The position numbers and the translations under genes are program-made. From Synergistaceae bacterium (lineage in GTDB: Bacteria > Synergistota > Synergistia > Synergistales > Synergistaceae): a DNA stretch of 64,000 bases. Location of the stretch: NCBI GenBank assembly GCA_031289775.1, contig JAITOY010000002.1, forward strand, positions 28,337-92,336, in the 5' to 3' direction. Of the stretch, positions 23,347 through 43,205 are shown piece after piece (within the stretch, counting starts at the first letter, position 1; every line of letters starts with the position of its first letter). Under the pieces are notes generated by a model. The model saw nothing but the letters and a program-made list of their open reading frames with translations, was not told the DNA's origin and made no database searches.

Positions 23347-23405
23347 CAGGCGCTCTCGCATTCATGGGGCGCACCCGGATATCCCGGAGTGAAAGGACGA
23401 CGCGC

Positions 23406-24413
23406 ATGATATTCATCAGCCATGCCGAGAGAGACGCGCCTCTGGCGGCAGCTCTCAAAAATTTTTTTGCGGAATGTATCGATGTTGCGCCGAAAAAAAT
23501 ATTTTGCACATGCATTCATGATCCGGAGCAGACGGACAACGAGTTGCCTTATGGGCGGTTGAAGGAGGAAATCTCCGAGAGCAGCATCGTCTTCGCCATA
23601 GTGACGCAGGATGGAGTCTCGTCCGGCAGCGTCCTTTTCGAGCTAGGCGCGGCGTGGATACTCGCAAATGGCATTTTTTTAATCTGTCTCGACGGTTCTG
23701 ACTTTCGTGATCTTCCGGGGCCGCTCAGCGCTTTCCCTTGCGTAGACGTCGAGGACAAGGACGCCGCGATCCGCATTATGGGCATGTGTCGTGACGCGGC
23801 CGCCGCCCTTGGAGTTGGGATAAAAAGAGGACCTAAAGTCGTCTCTTCGCTGACGGATGTTCTTGACTCGATCGCAAACCGCAAGAAGGATGACGACGCC
23901 GAATACGAATACGAAGACGAAGACGAAGACGAAGACGAAGACGAAGACGAAGAGAGGGACGGCTCTGACGAAGAAACTGGCGAGCGGTATGAAGTTGCCG
24001 AGTGGAGGGGCAGCGACTATTGCGAGATAAGTTTCATGGTCGACGGAATAGGAAGGAAAGATGTCGCGACGGTGCGGATTTTCTGGGACGACGTCTTCAT
24101 GACGATTGCGCAGAACACAAGGAAGTCTCAGGACGAGCCGTTTGTGGCAAGCGTGCTGTTGGAGCTGTGCAGAGAGAGAGACCCGGATTTTTCGAAAGCC
24201 CTCAGCTATAGGCTTATGCTGAATCCCGAGATATCTCCGGAGAGCTTCGCCCTTATCATGTCGCGGCTCTCGTCCATGGGTTTCATAGGCCCGTCCCAGC
24301 CGCCCCACACCGTATTCCAAAAGCAAGCTCGCGGGACGTTCTGGAAATTGACCCATGTCGGCGAGGAACACCTGCGTAGCGTGATTGCCGGACGGAGAAA
24401 GCTTCAAATGTGA
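23406..24413 (+). CDS. TIR-like domain protein: N-terminal TIR-like domain, acidic repeat linker, and a C-terminal domain of unknown function
   Basis: AAGGA sits 9 nt upstream of ATG 23406. The N-terminus MIFISHAERDAPLAAALKNFF…SSIVFAIVTQDGVSSGSVLFELGAAW matches the bacterial TIR pattern (vFISYs..D……ivlS..y..S.WC..El). The linker is DDDAEYEYEDEDEDEDEDEDEE, encoded by (GAAGAC)6. I do not recognise the ~150-aa C-terminal domain. The ORF-track start at 23364 is less likely. Confidence 0.5.
   Translation: MIFISHAERDAPLAAALKNFFAECIDVAPKKIFCTCIHDPEQTDNELPYGRLKEEISESSIVFAIVTQDGVSSGSVLFELGAAWILANGIFLICLDGSDFRDLPGPLSAFPCVDVEDKDAAIRIMGMCRDAAAALGVGIKRGPKVVSSLTDVLDSIANRKKDDDAEYEYEDEDEDEDEDEDEERDGSDEETGERYEVAEWRGSDYCEISFMVDGIGRKDVATVRIFWDDVFMTIAQNTRKSQDEPFVASVLLELCRERDPDFSKALSYRLMLNPEISPESFALIMSRLSSMGFIGPSQPPHTVFQKQARGTFWKLTHVGEEHLRSVIAGRRKLQM
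23901..23954 (+). repeat. In-frame hexanucleotide tandem repeat (GAATAC)2(GAAGAC)6(GAAGAG), encoding EYEYEDEDEDEDEDEDEE
   Basis: Read directly from the sequence: gaatacgaatacgaagacgaagacgaagacgaagacgaagacgaagacgaagag. Confidence 0.9.
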
Positions 24414-24527
24414 GTGCCGGACGAACATCCTGCTTACGTCCTAAACGCGAAAAATCGGCGAATGCAATCGGCGGCATAACTATTGACTTATATCCTGTTT
24501 GGCGTAGAATAATCGCTTGTGATGTTT

Positions 24528-24603
24528 GAGCCGTTAGCTCAGTCGGTAGAGCACCGGATTTTTAATCCGGGTGTCCCGGGTTCAACCCCCGGACGGCTCA
24601 CCA
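24528..24603 (+). tRNA. tRNA-Lys (anticodon UUU)
   Basis: The 76-nt cloverleaf has a 7-bp acceptor stem (GAGCCGT/ACGGCTC), a D-arm AGCTCAGTCGGTAGAGC, an anticodon loop aTTTTTAAt (anticodon TTT), a T-arm GGGTTCAACCCCC and an encoded CCA. Confidence 0.85.
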
Positions 24604-24627
24604 AACATCCTTCTAAATCCCTTCAGC

Positions 24628-24703
24628 GGTCCCATCGTCCAGTGGTCTAGGACACCGCCCTTTCAAGGCGGCGACACGGGTTCAAACCCCGTTGGGACCG
24701 CCA
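24628..24703 (+). tRNA. tRNA-Glu (anticodon UUC)
   Basis: The 76-nt sequence GGTCCCATCGTCCAGTGGTCTAGGACACCGCCCTTTCAAGGCGGCGACACGGGTTCAAACCCCGTTGGGACCGCCA closely follows the canonical tRNA-Glu architecture. It has a 7-bp acceptor stem and the anticodon loop C-TTC-AA. Confidence 0.85.
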
Positions 24704-25293
24704 GGTAAAGCCAAGGTCTCACCGCGATTCAGCGTGAGGCCTTTTTCGTGGTGCGTTGCCCACGGGGGTTCCAGCAGGCAAAAATTGTAAGTACAACGAT
24801 CACCCTTTAAGACAATATCAAGAGCAGAGCCGTTTACCTTCGACTCTGAATTTTTAGAAGAAACCGCCGATGACATAAGACCTTTTACATTTTCCATGAT
24901 AAAAAAACGGGGCCGCATGTAATCTATCATTCGTATAAAATCCATAAACAAACTGCCGCAGGGGTCGGCGATACCCTTCCTCTTGCCAGCCGTCGAAAAC
25001 GGCTGGCACGGTGGACCACCGCACACTAAAAACGGCTCTCCTTGTGACAAATTTGCCGCTTCTAATAACTGCTGAGGCTGTAATTTCCTAATGTCACCCT
25101 CTAAAACCTGATGGTTATTAGCTCTCATTGTCGTAACACAAGAATTATCTATATCCTGTCCCACTTTCACTAATAAACCCGCCTGAGATAAGCCAATATC
25201 AAGCCCCATAGCGCCGGAAAAAAGAGAAATAACGTCACGATTCGACGAAATATTATCACGTTGTAAAAACAAGATTTGATACCCCCTTTCCAA
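24682..25293 (-). pseudogene. Truncated DNA (cytosine-5)-methyltransferase with motifs I, IV and VI only
   Basis: The reverse-strand ORF has ISLFSGAMGLDIGL (motif I, FxGxGG-like), GGPPCQPFSTAGKRKG (motif IV PCQ) and IMENVKGL (motif VI ENV). Motif VIII (QxRxR), the target-recognition domain and motifs IX-X are absent. Beyond about 24795 the ORF reads through terminator/intergenic sequence into the tRNA-Glu 3' end. Confidence 0.6.
24715..24746 (+). terminator. Rho-independent terminator downstream of the tRNA pair
   Basis: ggtctcac-(11-nt loop)-gtgaggcc forms an 8-bp stem with one G·U pair, followed by TTTTT. Confidence 0.5.
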
Positions 25294-25426
25294 GGGTCTG
25301 CATAAAAAATTATAGCATTAATCAATAAAGTTTGCCGGAAATGTGCGCGCTATTTTATGGCTTGACGAATTTCCCAAAGTCGGTAAATATTGATGGACGA
25401 GGTTCATGAGAACAGGAGGGATTCGT

Positions 25427-25510
25427 ATGTCGACGCAGACCGTGACGGCAGAGCAGCAGGAGTTACTCGAGATTATAGAGGAGGTGGCATACTATGTCCG
25501 ACATCATTAA
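25427..25510 (+). CDS. Small ORF (27 aa, MSTQTVTAEQQELLEIIEEVAYYVRHH) upstream of and overlapping the next small ORF
   Basis: GGAGGG sits 7 nt upstream of the ATG. Its stop overlaps the next ORF, consistent with translational coupling. It is below the 60-aa cutoff of the ORF track. Confidence 0.2.
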   Translation: MSTQTVTAEQQELLEIIEEVAYYVRHH

Positions 25511-25661
25511 GGATGTTGAACGCACCTGTGCTTATTGCGGCAGGCCCTTGAATAGCCTCGAAATCGGCCATGATTATCTGAACGGCCTTTGCGAGAAGTG
25601 TCATGGCGTTGGAGTATCCGTAAATGCTGCGGCAGATTGGGTGCCTTACGATGGGAATTAA
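25494..25661 (+). CDS. Small zinc-ribbon-like protein (55 aa, CxxC-x17-CxxC)
   Basis: GAGGAGG sits 9 nt upstream of the ATG. The product is MSDIIKDVERTCAYCGRPLNSLEIGHDYLNGLCEKCHGVGVSVNAAADWVPYDGN, with two CxxC knuckles. It lies in the low-GC islet. Confidence 0.3.
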   Translation: MSDIIKDVERTCAYCGRPLNSLEIGHDYLNGLCEKCHGVGVSVNAAADWVPYDGN

Positions 25662-25894
25662 CGATTCGAGCAATCGAGAGTAAATCGGCGTTCCGCGTTT
25701 CTTCACGTCACACTACGTCACCTTCTGGAATTACGAATTATATCGCGGTGGCGCCAGAGAAAAAAGCGCCCCCGCGCTCTTCTCCTAATCGCTTGCGGGT
25801 ATCTGACTTTAGTAACAAAAACGGTCTTTTATTTTTAGGGATGTCTGTTACAATATTCTTACATTGGCGTCGATAGTGCGAGGTGGGGTTTTTC

Positions 25895-28426
25895 ATGAAA
25901 AAAAATCTCAGCAATCATTTGGTCATACTTTCATTTTTCGTCTCTGCCATAACCGTGCTTATCATATCAGTATACGCCAGTCTCATGATGAACTCCACAT
26001 CGGACTTCCTGAAGTCGAATATCGAATCGCGCCTGCTCTCCATCAGCCGCTACGCGGCTCAGTTGATTTCAGCGGACGAGCTGGAACAGCTCGTCACGCC
26101 GGAGGACATGCAAAAGCCGATTTACGCCGAGATCAAGGAACGGCTGATTGCCTTTGGCGAGGAAGCGGACATACTCTTCGTCTATTATTTGCGAGACGCC
26201 GGCAACGACGAGATGCAGTTCATCGTCGACAACGACACGACCGAGGACGCGGTTGACCTCGAAACTCCGCCGATACCTTATGAGGAGAGCCCGAAATTAG
26301 CGCAGAGCGGCACGGCGTCCACCGCTGGGCTGGGGAATTACTCCGTCGGTTATACAGGGCTCCTCTCGGCGTTCGCGCCGGTGTTCGATTCGGAGGGGAA
26401 CGTCATTGCGATAGTGGGGGTCGACATCACGGACGAGCATGTCCTGCTGATGAAGAGGCGCATAAACACGCTCTCTCTTTTGCTGATCGTCTCCATGACC
26501 GTCGCCATATCGAGCGGTTACATCGGTTTTTCGCTCTACAAAAAGAAGGCGGCGCAGTCCGAGGTCGCCAACATATCGAAGAGCCTCTTCCTCGCCAACA
26601 TAAGCCACGAGATGCGCACGCCCCTCAACGCCATCATCGGCCTCTCAGAGCTGACCCTCGACTCGGACGACGTGCGCGGCGAGGCCAGAGAGAACATGGA
26701 GAAGGTCTACAACTCAGGCATGACTCTGCTTAGTCTCATCAACGACATTCTCGACATCTCAAAAATCGAGGCGGGAAGGTTCGATCTGATTCCGGCCGAG
26801 TACGACACGCCGAGCCTCATCAACGACGCTGTCACGCTCAATATAATCCGCATTGGCTCAAAACCCATTACGTTCAGCCTGTCGATCGACCCGGCTCTGC
26901 CGGGCAGCCTCTTAGGGGATGAGGTGAGGATCAAGCAGATTCTGAACAACCTCCTCTCCAACGCTTTTAAATACACGAAGGAGGGCAAAATCGATCTTGG
27001 CATCTCGTTCGAGCGAGAAGGGGAAAGCGTCTGGATCACCTTTAGTGTCAGCGACACCGGCATTGGCATACACCGGGAGGACATGGAGAAGCTGTTCGTC
27101 GACTACAGCCAGCTCGACTCGAAAAGCAACCGTAAAATCGAGGGCACTGGGCTCGGCCTCGCCATCACGAAAAGGCTCGTGGATATGATGGACGGCGCCA
27201 TCACGGTCGAGAGCGAGTACGGCAGGGGCAGCGTCTTTACAGCGCGCCTCAGACAGGGCGCCGCCGGTGATACCCCTATAGGCGAGGATGTCGTGGAGAA
27301 TCTCAAGCGCTTTCACTACTCCGACAACAAGCGCGACCGAAACGCGCGGCTCGTGCGCGTCCAGATACCGTACGCGAATGTGCTCGTGGTCGACGACATC
27401 GCGACAAATCTTGACGTCGCGAGGGGGATGCTGAAGCCATATGGTATGCAGATCGACTGCGCTACGAGCGGGGCCGCCGCCATCGAGCTCGTGAGGGCCG
27501 GGACGAAGTACAGCGCGATATTCATGGATCATATGATGCCCGGTATGGATGGGATCGAGGCCCTGCGTCTGATTCGGGAGGATATAGGCACGGAGTACGC
27601 CAGGACTGTCCCCATAATCGCGCTCACGGCCAACGCGGTCGTCGGCAACAAGGAGATGTTCCTCAAGAGTGGCTTCCAGGACTTCCTTACGAAGCCTATC
27701 GACATCATGAGAATGGATGCCGTCATAAACCGCTGGGTGCGCGACATGGAGATGGAGATGGCCCCTGCGGAAGCCCCGGCAGGGGAGGACTCCGCCAACG
27801 GAGGACTGGCGGGGAAGCCGGACAGGAGGAAGCTCCGAGAGAGGAGGGTTAACGGAGTCGATTTAGAGATTGGACTGAGGCGTTTCGGCGGCGACGAGGA
27901 CGTTTATTATGACGTGTTGAAGTCATACGTGCGCAACACGCCTTCCCTGATCGACGAGATTCGGGACTGCCGGGAGGATGGCTTGGCCGCTTACGCCGTG
28001 GTAGTTCACGGCATAAAGGGCAGCAGCCGAGGCATCGGGGCTGAGATGATGGGCCTGAGGGCCGAGTCGCTCGAGTTCGCGGCGAAGGACGGCGATTTCG
28101 CGTTCGTCGAGGCGAACAACGGTATTTTCATTGCTGAGACTGAAAAGTTGATCGGCGAGCTCTCCGCCATACTGCAAAGCGTTGACGCCGAGACGGAAAG
28201 ACCGATGAGGCCTGCGCCGGATGAGGCGGCGCTGGACTCCCTGATGGAGGCCTGCGCCGGATTCGACATCGACGGCGTGGATAGGGCAATGGAGGAGTTG
28301 GAGAGCTTCGATTACGAATCCGGCTTCGAGCTTGTAGTTTGGCTGAGAAATCAGGTGAGCCTCATGGGCTTCAAGGGGATCAAGGAACGTCTCGAGAGCA
28401 GAAAAAAATCTCGGGCGCAATCCTGA
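25895..28426 (+). CDS. Hybrid sensor histidine kinase (TM-sensor-TM, HisKA, HATPase_c, REC, Hpt)
   Basis: GAGGTGGGG RBS. The H-box is [17 protein letters not shown]. The N/G boxes are …NAFKYT…SDTGIGI…GTGLGLAI. The receiver is [10 protein letters not shown]…[13 protein letters not shown]…ALTANA. The C-terminal Hpt-like histidine is in [15 protein letters not shown]. Confidence 0.8.
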
Positions 28427-39911: not shown

Positions 39912-40985
39912 TTACCGGAGGATGATTATCATGTCCCGCGTGAACTTGTTGAGCGGCTCCGCTGTCCCGTCATCCCGTACTGCGACTAAGTTTTCGATTC
40001 TGACGCCGAATTTCCCCTCCAAGTAAATCCCGGGCTCCACGCTGAAGACGTTGCCGGGCTGTAACGGGATGTCGTTGCCCTCGATTATGTACGGCGATTC
40101 ATGTATCGCGATCCCGACCCCGTGGCCGACCCTGTTGATGAAATGGGCCCCGTACCCGGCGCTGTTTATGACGGCCCGCGCGGCCCTGTCGACATCCTGA
40201 CCGGTTGCGCCTGGGCGGACGGCGGCTTCGCCCGCCTTCTGCGCCTCGAGGACGATGTCGTATACTTTTCGCTGTTCGTCGTCCGGCTCGCCAATGCAGA
40301 ACGTCCGCGTCATGTCGGAGCAGTAGCCGCGGTACTTGCATCCCATGTCGACGACAAGGAAATCCCCGGGTCGAAGCCTGCGATCGTTTCTGGAGTAGTG
40401 GGGCATAGATCCGCCGGGCCCGGACGCGGCGATCGGGCTGAAGGAGAGCTTCGGAGCGCCGCGTTCGGCGCAGAGACGCGCTATTTCGTCCTGCACCTCC
40501 TTTTCGGAGACGCCGGCTCGGATGAAACGAGATAGCTCGTCCATCACTTCGTCCGCGATGCCGCCGGCCCGCCTGAGATAATCCAACTCCGTCGAGTCCT
40601 TCACCATACGGAACGGCGCAAGGGCGTCGCTCCCGTTCGCCCATTCGAAATCGAGGACGGCCCTCATATCAATCAAGTCTACGGCGCGTACCCCGTCGTT
40701 GAAGGCGATTACGCTCCTTTTGCCATTTTTGTCAGAGCCCAGCCCCATTTCAGAGCATCCTGCGGCAAACGCGCCGGCAAACCCCTCGTGGTCGGCCCAC
40801 TCTTTGTAGATAACGTCGGGGCCAAGAGCGGCGCGCATCTCCTCGCGGTAAATGAGCGGGGTCATAGCGAAAAGTCCGCCGGTTGTCACCATAAGCCCCT
40901 TCACTCGCTCATCCTGAAAGAGCCTCAGCTCGGCCAGATATTCCATGTCCGTAGATGGGCCAAAATAAATGGCGTCCACTTCCAT
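39912..40985 (-). CDS. M24 family Xaa-Pro dipeptidase / aminopeptidase (PepQ/PepP-like)
   Basis: The creatinase N-domain is followed by the M24 pita-bread fold. Metal ligands lie in …DFLVVDMGCKYRGYCSDMTRTF…HGVGIAIHE…EPGIY…ENLV. Confidence 0.8.
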   Translation of the reverse strand: MEVDAIYFGPSTDMEYLAELRLFQDERVKGLMVTTGGLFAMTPLIYREEMRAALGPDVIYKEWADHEGFAGAFAAGCSEMGLGSDKNGKRSVIAFNDGVRAVDLIDMRAVLDFEWANGSDALAPFRMVKDSTELDYLRRAGGIADEVMDELSRFIRAGVSEKEVQDEIARLCAERGAPKLSFSPIAASGPGGSMPHYSRNDRRLRPGDFLVVDMGCKYRGYCSDMTRTFCIGEPDDEQRKVYDIVLEAQKAGEAAVRPGATGQDVDRAARAVINSAGYGAHFINRVGHGVGIAIHESPYIIEGNDIPLQPGNVFSVEPGIYLEGKFGVRIENLVAVRDDGTAEPLNKFTRDMIIILR

Positions 40986-41290
40986 TGAAACGAGATGCCG
41001 TTTTAGTTTATTAACCCTATCAGTGTTAAGAATGATAACGCCCCCTTATATGATATACTATAAATAAATTATAGGATATTAATGACGAAAACTTCGTTGA
41101 ATTCTGCTAAATCACGCGTAATTTCTTGTTTATCGAAACACACTAAGCAATTAGTATTACCAAAATTAGCATAAATCAAGTATTTATGGAAATTATTTTA
41201 TATTTATTGCGCCTTTCCCCTTCCCAATTTCAATATTCGTTGATATCATCAAATTACGGGGATAATTTATTTTACTCGAGGTGATCTCAC

Positions 41291-41956
41291 ATGAAACCTA
41301 TTCATTTGTTAATAGTCGAATCAGATCCGCTAGTCCTATTCTCCATCAGCCAGGTAATCAGGTATTTTGACAATTATCTGGTGGTGGATAAAGTGGACAA
41401 CGCCGAAGATGCCCTCGAGAGAATGAGGGTCGTGCCTGTAGACCTCATTATATTGGGGGGGCAGGAGAACATTGGCAAGTGGCACATTTTTGTCGAGTCT
41501 GGGCTCAAAACCAAGCTCCTGATGCTGGTGACAAATCCAGCGAAGGAGATGGTTCAGGACGCGATATCCTATGGGGTATGGGATATGGTCATCAGGCCCA
41601 TATCCACGGAGAGGCTGAGGTTCTCCCTCGAAATGTTCAGGTATCGCCATATATACGGCGAGTCGCTTGAGTATCCGGTACAGCAGGAGAGGCTCGACTC
41701 TATATTTTTCCCGCGCGAGCGTCATCAGCACATCATCGCTGGAACGATAAAAAACAGCGAGATGCTTGAAAAAGTCCTGCAGCTTATCGAAAACGGCGAC
41801 GAACCGCAGTCGGCGGGCGAGATAGCCGGCGTACTGAGCGTGTCGAGGATAACAGTCCGCAAATACTGCGAGGCACTCGTAAACACTGGCAAACTCCACG
41901 TGAAGAACAAATACCAGGCGAAGGGACGGCCGATAAAACAGTACTATATGGCCTGA
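41291..41956 (+). CDS. CitB/DcuR-family response regulator (REC plus C-terminal HTH) with no cognate kinase nearby
   Basis: The REC-like N-terminus is LLIVESDPL…VDLIILGG. The C-terminal …ISRITVRKYCEALVNTGKLHV…KGRPIKQYY matches the DcuR/CitB HTH tail. Confidence 0.55.
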   Translation: MKPIHLLIVESDPLVLFSISQVIRYFDNYLVVDKVDNAEDALERMRVVPVDLIILGGQENIGKWHIFVESGLKTKLLMLVTNPAKEMVQDAISYGVWDMVIRPISTERLRFSLEMFRYRHIYGESLEYPVQQERLDSIFFPRERHQHIIAGTIKNSEMLEKVLQLIENGDEPQSAGEIAGVLSVSRITVRKYCEALVNTGKLHVKNKYQAKGRPIKQYYMA

Positions 41957-41960
41957 TCGG

Positions 41961-43205
41961 TTACGCAAGGCCAGTCGCAAGCAGAAGCCTCTCAATCGAG
42001 ACAGAGCCGCCCCATTCGCCGGGATATTCGTGCGACCCGTCACGGTCTCGGAACGACAGACGCCGTTCCGAGACGTGAGCGGCGCCTGTTCTTATCTCAC
42101 CGGATTCTCGAAAGCTCGCCGATTCGAAAGCCCCTCCACAGGGGCAGGGAGTTCCGGGGGCGCAGGCGGCTATGTCGGCCATGGGAGGGTCGAAGTCCCT
42201 TCCGTGACAGCAGCCGGTTCTGTGGAAGCCGGGACGGTTGGCGCCGGCCACGATGTTTTTGGCGCCGGCCACGCTGTTGTCGCACACGGCGATCACATTA
42301 TCTGGAAGGCCAACGGGGCCGCAGTAACCGGCAACATCCCCGACAAGCTCGTAAAGCTCCGGTTTCTCGGCGATCCTGAGGCCGCCTAGTCCAAAAGTCG
42401 CATTCAAGTAACGCGCCAGTTTGTTCATGCTGACGTTGAAGTCGCCCCTGACAAAGGAGGCAACAGCGCGTCGCGCCGATGGCTTCCCGGCCTCGGGTTT
42501 TTCCATGGCAACGTACAGCATCGCCTTCACTGTGCGCTCAACTCGTATATCCAATAGCGAACAGAGCGCGGCGATAGTGTTCGCGCCAGGCGTTTCGATA
42601 TCGCTCATACTCTCCTCCGGCTCTTTCACGCCCGGCTGGCGTACGGGAAAGTCAATCGGCGAGTCCGGCAGGAGCAATTTACCGCAGGCCGTGCAGACAA
42701 AACCTAGCCTCGCGTCGATTGTGCCTGGGCCAGACTGACAAAGCAGCGAAAAAAAACGGCTGTCCTCAGAGCGGATCTCCTCGACGAAATTGAAGTTCAC
42801 GCGACTTTCGCGAAGCACAGAGATTATTGCGGACATAGCCAACTCGGCAGCGCTAAACGCGAGATATTCATCCTCTCGCCAGCCCAAAAGCCGGAGCTCC
42901 CTGTGCCTTGTGTCGCAATACGAGAGAGCCTGATCCTTCCACTCCCTCACGTACCTCTCCGCAAGCGAGAAGATCGCTTCGTCGCTTCCGCAGTCGACCG
43001 ATTGCAGCCCGCTATCTTGAAAAAGCGCGCGTTCGATATTTTCGCAAAGCGCGCGAGCCGCGGCGAGGCCGGTTGGCAGAAGCAGAAGCTCGCCGGATTT
43101 AGCGTTGTAAGCGGCCGCTCCGGCCTTGACGAGGGCTATTACGCCGTCGTCCTTCTGCTTCGCCGGCGCGTTTTGCGTCGCCGGTTTGAATATCTCTCGT
43201 TTCAT
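41961..43205 (-). CDS. Prolyl-tRNA-synthetase-like paralog: class II catalytic core with degenerate motifs and an INS editing domain, but no anticodon-binding domain
   Basis: It follows bacterial ProRS from the N-terminus (…ALVKAGAAAYNAKSGELLLLPTGLAAARALCENIERAL… versus L.RAG.i.....GlY.wLPtG.rv..kv.n.ire). The INS domain follows (DIETPGANTIAALCSLLDIRVERTVKAMLYV…FVRGD…AGANRPG). It terminates right after a motif-3-like segment (GEWGGSVSIERLLLATGLA). The motif 2 and 3 consensus residues are degenerate. There is a 4-nt start/stop overlap with hisC. Confidence 0.5.
   Translation of the reverse strand: MKREIFKPATQNAPAKQKDDGVIALVKAGAAAYNAKSGELLLLPTGLAAARALCENIERALFQDSGLQSVDCGSDEAIFSLAERYVREWKDQALSYCDTRHRELRLLGWREDEYLAFSAAELAMSAIISVLRESRVNFNFVEEIRSEDSRFFSLLCQSGPGTIDARLGFVCTACGKLLLPDSPIDFPVRQPGVKEPEESMSDIETPGANTIAALCSLLDIRVERTVKAMLYVAMEKPEAGKPSARRAVASFVRGDFNVSMNKLARYLNATFGLGGLRIAEKPELYELVGDVAGYCGPVGLPDNVIAVCDNSVAGAKNIVAGANRPGFHRTGCCHGRDFDPPMADIAACAPGTPCPCGGAFESASFRESGEIRTGAAHVSERRLSFRDRDGSHEYPGEWGGSVSIERLLLATGLA

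Follow-up and report, generated by a model that had tools for sequence, protein, structure and literature searches.

We analysed a stretch of 64,000 nucleotides from a Synergistaceae gut bacterium (assembly GCA_031289775.1, contig JAITOY010000002.1, positions 28,337 to 92,336 of the forward strand; hereafter, the window), focusing on the low-GC islet that directly follows a tRNA-Glu gene at 24704-25880. The minus strand of the islet carries a fragment of a C5-cytosine methyltransferase gene. On the plus strand, beyond an AT-rich spacer, lies a small gene, here called zn55, and the next gene to the right encodes a hybrid histidine kinase (coordinates in Table 1). An earlier note, made from the sequence of this DNA, had described the islet as the scar of an element, perhaps a restriction-modification (R-M) cassette or a prophage fragment, that integrated at the tRNA gene and was later eroded.

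The islet stands out by its composition. Its GC content is 45.7%, against a mean of 57.2% for segments of the same size across the 64 kb (standard deviation 3.6; z = -3.25), and only 0.33% of such segments have a GC content at or below this value. The minimum of the whole window, 44.1%, is reached at 24776-25952. The sharp drop of about 1.2 kb after tRNA-Glu that the earlier note reported is therefore present, from a background of about 57% rather than the ~60% it gave. Its right-hand edge was placed too early: the GC background is not restored at the kinase gene, since the dip extends ~250-300 nt into it (48% GC in the first 300 nt past its start at 25895), and the 300-nt GC profile is back at 55% or more from 26000-26299. 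Codon usage, the other check proposed at the time, gave a GC content at third codon positions (GC3) of 41% for the methyltransferase fragment vs 65-77% across ten neighbouring genes. The islet is a composite, and the DNA in it beyond the methyltransferase fragment is not demonstrably part of one element with that fragment.

The methyltransferase fragment is an amino-terminal piece. The match of its open reading frame (ORF) to PF00145 is limited to profile positions 3-117 of 324. Motif I (LFSGAMGLD, invariant in the alignment of homologues), motif IV (GGPPCQPFS, with the catalytic Cys) and motif VI (MENVKG) are present, but motif VIII (QxRxR; QFRER in relatives), the target recognition domain (TRD) and motifs IX-X are absent, just as the earlier note had read from the sequence. 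The fragment is 63% identical to residues 10-161 and 29-175 of two full-length methylases, encoded on contigs L082 and L083, respectively. Homology with these full-length relatives ends at about 24802-24808, corresponding to residue ~161-175 of 400-406, before motif VIII. The last ~35 codons of the ORF have no homologue and represent a chance read-through of junction DNA, the tRNA terminator and the 3' end of tRNA-Glu, which the ORF overlaps by 22 nt; the reading of this frame into the tRNA gene had been described correctly. In a comparison with the PDB, the fragment aligned with residues 2-117 of 324 of M.HaeIII, the nearest solved structure (E 1.8e-21), and with residues 14-126 of M.HhaI. 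Like these two enzymes, it has the N-terminal catalytic part with motifs I, IV and VI; unlike them, it has neither the second half of the catalytic domain (VIII, IX-X) nor the small TRD domain.

The missing part is not found elsewhere in the window. Across the whole 64 kb, tblastn with five longer and two full-length homologues as queries gave 25266-24802 as the sole match, and no displaced C-terminal half of the methylase was detected. A tblastn search of the 64 kb with two 249-aa restriction endonuclease (R) proteins, taken from the relatives described below, gave no match to an R gene. Judged by its sequence, the fragment is a C5-cytosine methyltransferase by descent and would be non-functional as a member of that family. 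Because motif VIII, the TRD and motifs IX-X are missing, its product is predicted to be unable to recognise or methylate DNA.

Homologues of the fragment number several hundred, at 58-77% identity, and the named ones come from metagenome-assembled genomes (MAGs) of Clostridia, Coriobacteriales and Blautia. At 61 alignment columns a residue is conserved in 97% or more of the homologues, and the fragment deviates at three of them: N109A, R112C (the Arg of DPRGSLF) and I126M. Among 119 homologues the mean number of such deviations is 0.48, and only five show three or more. The three substitutions may thus be a modest sign of relaxed constraint.

Next, the genomic neighbours of related methylases were inspected, as the earlier note had proposed, and a cognate restriction gene was found. 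On two IMG/VR contigs (L082 and L083), an intact C5-methyltransferase (M) gene, encoding 400 and 406 aa, is followed directly downstream by a gene for a 249-aa protein that matches PF14511, the type II restriction endonuclease EcoO109I (3e-63 and 1.5e-58). The L083 cassette adjoins a second C5-methyltransferase gene and a phage structural-type gene. R is adjacent to M in three further relatives as well (L204, L207 and L209). A phmmer search of the PDB with the R protein of the relatives returned no match, the EcoO109I sequence in the PDB included, and the link to EcoO109I is therefore made through the Pfam profile only. The R proteins are accordingly distant members of the EcoO109I family, and no recognition site is assigned to them; EcoO109I itself cuts RG^GNCCY, and AvaII cuts G^GWCC (PMC7337904). 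In the plasmid collection we found only distant methylases, at 53% identity or less, and no informative named system. The window fragment descends from the M gene of a cassette of this family, in which a C5-methyltransferase is paired with a PF14511 PD-(D/E)XK endonuclease; unlike such systems, the window keeps ~40% of M and has no R.

The cassette is intact on the two phage-like contigs and broken in all five non-viral relatives inspected (six with the window), in each of them differently. In L204-206, frameshifts interrupt M at residue ~182 and R at ~110. In L207 and L208, the closest relative other than self to be found on a long contig, M residue 188 is joined to R residue 105 by a deletion. 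L209 has a stop in M and a frameshift in R, while in L001 M has a premature stop and R is reduced to its last 35 aa. In L201-203, M breaks off at residue 146, and the approximately 20 contigs concerned all end within 36 nt beyond this point, which suggests a repeat or the insertion of an insertion sequence (IS); a vsr gene, divergently oriented, lies upstream. The decay has thus occurred repeatedly and independently. The DNA upstream of the M genes shows no mutual similarity among relatives, so the mobile unit starts at M; the comparison suggests that this unit may be a minimal M+R pair. Likewise, 25273-25900 of the window has no similarity to Vsr, C protein or other cassette neighbours of the relatives. 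R-M cassettes move as small units and turn over quickly (Furuta et al. 2010, PMC2853133; Oliveira et al. 2014, PMC4176335), and the pattern of intact copies on phage-like contigs and broken copies elsewhere fits fast turnover after transfer.

Taken together, these data indicate that the core of the islet is very probably the dead remnant of a horizontally acquired type II R-M cassette, from which the 3' ~60% of M and the whole of R were deleted. Of the origins that the earlier note had offered, an eroded R-M cassette is the one borne out by the PF14511 endonuclease downstream of the full-length relatives; a prophage fragment is a possible source only, with the intact copies on the two phage-like contigs in its favour. 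The remnant resembles the decayed and solitary R-M components described previously in its foreign composition, its small size as a unit, the lack of conserved flanks, its rapid turnover and its being what is left after gene loss (PMC2853133, PMC4176335). It differs from documented mobile R-M units in that no integrase, target duplication or inverted repeats are detectable in the window.

The history of the locus could have run as follows. The intact ancestor would have comprised a gene for a ~400-aa C5-cytosine methyltransferase, followed by a gene for a 249-aa EcoO109I-family endonuclease. This M+R cassette would have been acquired by horizontal transfer, possibly from a phage, and would have landed, and later collapsed, in the intergenic stretch separating the tRNA operon from zn55 or the kinase gene. 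The acquisition was presumably recent, because the composition has not been ameliorated. R would then have been lost or inactivated, through intermediate stages such as those seen in L204, L209 and L001, and a deletion would have removed the 3' part of M together with R. In the sense orientation of M, the missing part pointed toward the tRNA gene. The deletion would have ended at about 24802, ~55 nt past the tRNA-Glu terminator, leaving the part with motifs I-VI (the S-adenosylmethionine (AdoMet)-binding region and the catalytic loop) together with its start codon and ribosome-binding site. The start in the NCBI model is a TTG at 25272, with GGGGG 9 nt upstream. Since frame, start codon and ribosome-binding site are intact, the main lesion would be one deletion, probably a recent one, and the GC3 of the fragment says likewise. 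A cell that loses M before R has been inactivated is expected to suffer harm (PMC4176335), which argues that R would already have been dead, or that both genes would have been lost together. As an R-M system, the locus is predicted to do nothing, with no endonuclease and a stump that ends short of the C-terminal motifs and the TRD.

Several observations weigh against this reconstruction. The frame of the stump is still open over ~165 codons, its start codon and ribosome-binding site are in place, and the conserved residue is kept at 58 of the 61 highly conserved columns. Point mutations have contributed little to the decay, and the truncated protein might still be expressed. The right-hand limit of the foreign DNA is undefined. 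Moreover, the Synergistaceae lineage of the window has been sampled essentially once. The 90%-identity clusters of TGT, of two response regulators and of the kinase contain this contig only (~15 billion proteins), and the exact tRNA-Glu sequence had zero matches in the metagenome contig collection. The best metagenomic relatives of TGT are 72% identical and keep the TGT-Sua5 synteny, without tRNA-Lys/Glu, methylase or zn55. In genome contigs, the kinase has relatives in termite-gut MAGs from several phyla; none of these exceeds 64% identity, and their loci show no synteny with the tRNA genes. No genome at 90% protein identity or more exists in the databases searched, and neither the former R gene nor an empty site is directly demonstrable.

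The deletion of a cassette that had moved by itself has to be weighed against integration at the tRNA gene, the mechanism favoured by the earlier note. If this were the case, the stump would be all that is left of a larger integrative element (a prophage or island) that carried the R-M cassette, entered at the 3' end of tRNA-Glu by site-specific recombination and was then mostly deleted. The stump does lie 100 nt from the tRNA gene, intact cassettes are found on viral contigs, one of them beside a phage structural gene, and a TIR/SpbK-like defence-type gene stands on the other side of the tRNAs. Both modes of movement are documented, R-M units moving alone and integrase-bearing units inserted in tRNA genes (PMC2853133). 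However, no integrase or recombinase was found among the ORFs at 17.3-33 kb, which encode housekeeping and signalling proteins, a TIR protein, the M stump and zn55. With up to 3 mismatches allowed, the final 24 nt of tRNA-Glu have no second copy in the 64 kb, and no flanking direct repeats were found. The tRNA gene is directly adjoined by its own strong terminator, which a classical integration at the tRNA 3' end would normally displace at attL. Finally, in the five non-viral relatives the cassette lies in unrelated contexts free of tRNA genes. Integration at the tRNA gene is thus unsupported by the window, and we regard an island of this kind as unlikely.

A different question is whether the ~200-aa protein might be complete as it stands, an intact member of a short C5-methyltransferase-like family, for instance a subunit of a split enzyme or a domesticated AdoMet-binding protein. 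Homologues 130-200 aa long number in the dozens, and several of these lie on contigs that measure 20-200 kb; the window ORF has kept its start, ribosome-binding site and open frame, and NCBI labels the product as a methyltransferase and not as a pseudogene. M.AquI is a split two-subunit C5-methyltransferase whose alpha subunit extends through motif VIII into part of the TRD, with the beta gene following. The window resembles it in having the N-terminal part of a C5-methyltransferase as a separate polypeptide; unlike in M.AquI, the break comes before motif VIII, and no second part that could serve as partner is present in the 64 kb. The short homologues themselves are independently broken genes: their end points vary from residue 133 to 199, and in four of the five cases examined they are followed either by the remainder of M, placed in a different frame or beyond a stop, or by a broken R gene, the fifth being cut by contig ends. 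Moreover, the C-terminal 35 residues of the window ORF are read-through of terminator and tRNA. Since the break points of the homologues all differ, we reject a short family, which is now very improbable. That the islet is an assembly chimera, ~1 kb from another organism within a MAG contig, is scarcely credible: such a source, the abrupt change of composition and nearest homologues from Clostridia and Coriobacteriales would allow it, but the anomaly is internal to one contig with normal Synergistaceae-type genes on both sides, the best non-self homologue is only 65% identical to the fragment, so that no read-level contaminant from a sampled organism is involved, and the stump ends mid-gene against native-looking DNA downstream of the tRNA gene, as a deletion would leave it.

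Eroded R-M cassettes are a well-known and ordinary kind of genomic debris, of which the window holds one more instance. The NCBI entry for the fragment (196 aa, 99% identical) is named 'DNA (cytosine-5-)-methyltransferase' and carries no pseudogene flag. It would be better flagged as a truncated pseudogene, and not counted as an active methylase or defence gene of this MAG. Beyond annotation, the finding matters little. Two features are mildly unusual, namely that the cassette is broken in every non-viral context inspected and that zn55 is a two-member gene adjacent to tRNA genes.

The product of zn55 is a CxxC...CxxCH zinc-ribbon protein with one homologue, P0122 (55 aa, 78% identical, word-indexed search), encoded at 228-395 of a 1.3-kb JGI contig, L120. 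DNA similarity between the two loci is confined to the coding region, and the ratio of nonsynonymous to synonymous substitution rates (dN/dS) is 0.13. From this comparison, zn55 is a real gene under purifying selection. It was called by JGI and seems to be absent from the NCBI annotation, because the accession run MDR3254026-033 leaves no slot for it; zn55 encodes a genuine micro-protein that the NCBI annotation has apparently missed. On L120, 24 nt without a terminator separate tRNA-Leu(CAG) from the start of the homologue. A convergent gene, the product of which resembles a P-type ATPase on inspection by eye, ends 5 nt from the stop of the homologue; the contig has no methylase. Both known copies of zn55 are located downstream of a tRNA gene and on its strand.

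Family searches with zn55 gave little. An exhaustive profile search of 1.84 billion representatives returned only non-specific Cys-rich matches, NCBIfam, PADLOC and PHROGS gave no match, and matches in Pfam were limited to sub-threshold zinc ribbons (DZR 0.0043). The AlphaFold model has a pLDDT of 60.7, too poor for use of the fold. JGI names the protein 'McrA' (an HNH endonuclease); this name is not backed by any HNH profile match at E up to 0.1, and the resemblance of the CxxC..H..N..CxxCH pattern to an HNH finger is by eye only. None of the cassette-bearing loci of the relatives carries zn55, so it probably lies outside the R-M element, and it is probably a resident small gene rather than R-M cargo. 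The earlier note had held that junction DNA beside decayed methyltransferases sometimes retains functional orphan genes: a genuine 55-aa gene does lie in the islet, which makes this idea half right, since the gene probably has no part in the R-M element. The proposal that zn55 represents a new kind of tRNA-gene-linked small protein, and that the cassette was inserted between the tRNA gene and zn55, seems quite improbable. If it were true, and the linkage functional, either through co-transcription or because the protein acts at hot spots next to tRNA genes as a small nuclease or regulator, an unrecognised feature would be present in the islet.

A 27-aa ORF upstream overlaps the start of zn55 by 17 nt, as in translational coupling. 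It has no family match, and it is absent upstream of the zn55 homologue on L120. In the leader region 3' of zn55, a fold test revealed no significant RNA structure.

Table 1. Features in and around the low-GC islet of the window.
Feature	Position	Strand	Details and basis
Promoter-like TTGACT-16-TAGAAT, ahead of tRNA-Lys	24483-24510		Promoter scan
tRNA-Lys (UUU)	24528-24603	+	ARAGORN; Rfam tRNA 71.9 bits
tRNA-Glu (UUC)	24628-24703	+	Intact, CCA encoded; ARAGORN; Rfam 67.5 bits
Intrinsic terminator of the tRNA operon	about 24714-24746	+	11-bp hairpin, then UUUUU; RNA fold
203-aa ORF	24682-25293	-	PF00145 5e-34; TIGR00675 9e-30; methyltransferase part only 24802-25272
5' stump of the M gene of a type II R-M cassette	24802-25272	-	~residues 1-165 of ~400; GC 42.9%, GC3 41%
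AT-rich spacer between the divergent M stump and the small plus-strand genes	25294-25426		39.8% GC; not similar to the DNA ahead of M genes in relatives
Promoter-like TTGACG-18-AATATT in the spacer	25362-25391	+	Promoter scan; assigned to zn55 as its own
27-aa ORF (MSTQTVTAEQQELLEIIEEVAYYVRHH)	25427-25510	+	Ribosome-binding site AGGAGGG; status unsupported
zn55, gene for a 55-aa zinc-ribbon protein	25494-25661	+	Ribosome-binding site GGAGGTGG
Intergenic region and kinase leader	25662-25894		46.8% GC
Hybrid histidine kinase (HisKA, HATPase_c, receiver, Hpt), right-hand neighbour	25895-28426	+	Pfam; exact match to NCBI MDR3254030.1

The terminator of the tRNA operon has a folding energy of -23.6 kcal/mol (z -3.08), and none of 200 shuffled sequences was equally stable. 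An Rfam scan of 24300-26200 found nothing beyond tRNA-Lys and tRNA-Glu. The genes at 17-33 kb encode a nucleoside phosphorylase, a sigma factor, MTHFR, a LuxR-type two-component pair, the TIR protein, the tRNAs, the hybrid kinase, an HD-GYP-type response regulator, Fe-ADH, TGT and Sua5.

On the left, the TIR-domain protein (349 aa, 23364-24413, plus strand) has its TIR domain at the N-terminus (PADLOC spbK 1.2e-11; Pfam TIR_2 8e-5, below the cut-off). It contains an acidic (ED)n tract, encoded by a (GAAGAC)n repeat at 23889-23954. The gene ends 115 nt from tRNA-Lys, and the tRNA pair thus lies between a defence-type gene and the R-M remnant.

On the right, the hybrid kinase shares, over its kinase and receiver core (residues ~220-840), 57-64% identity with kinases of the best-matching termite-gut MAGs (loci L003-L081), which span distant phyla and include Desulfovibrio, Treponema, Lachnospiraceae and Adiutrix. 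The matches at these loci begin at residue ~220, and the sensor part (1-~220) is unmatched there. This suggests that the kinase core may have spread widely by horizontal transfer, with sensors specific to each lineage.

Outside the islet, the second-lowest-GC kilobase of the window is at 40850-42026 (45.9%). It holds a gene for a 221-aa response regulator with an HTH_11 domain (41291-41956, plus strand), flanked by an M24 peptidase gene and a gene with a tRNA-editing domain.

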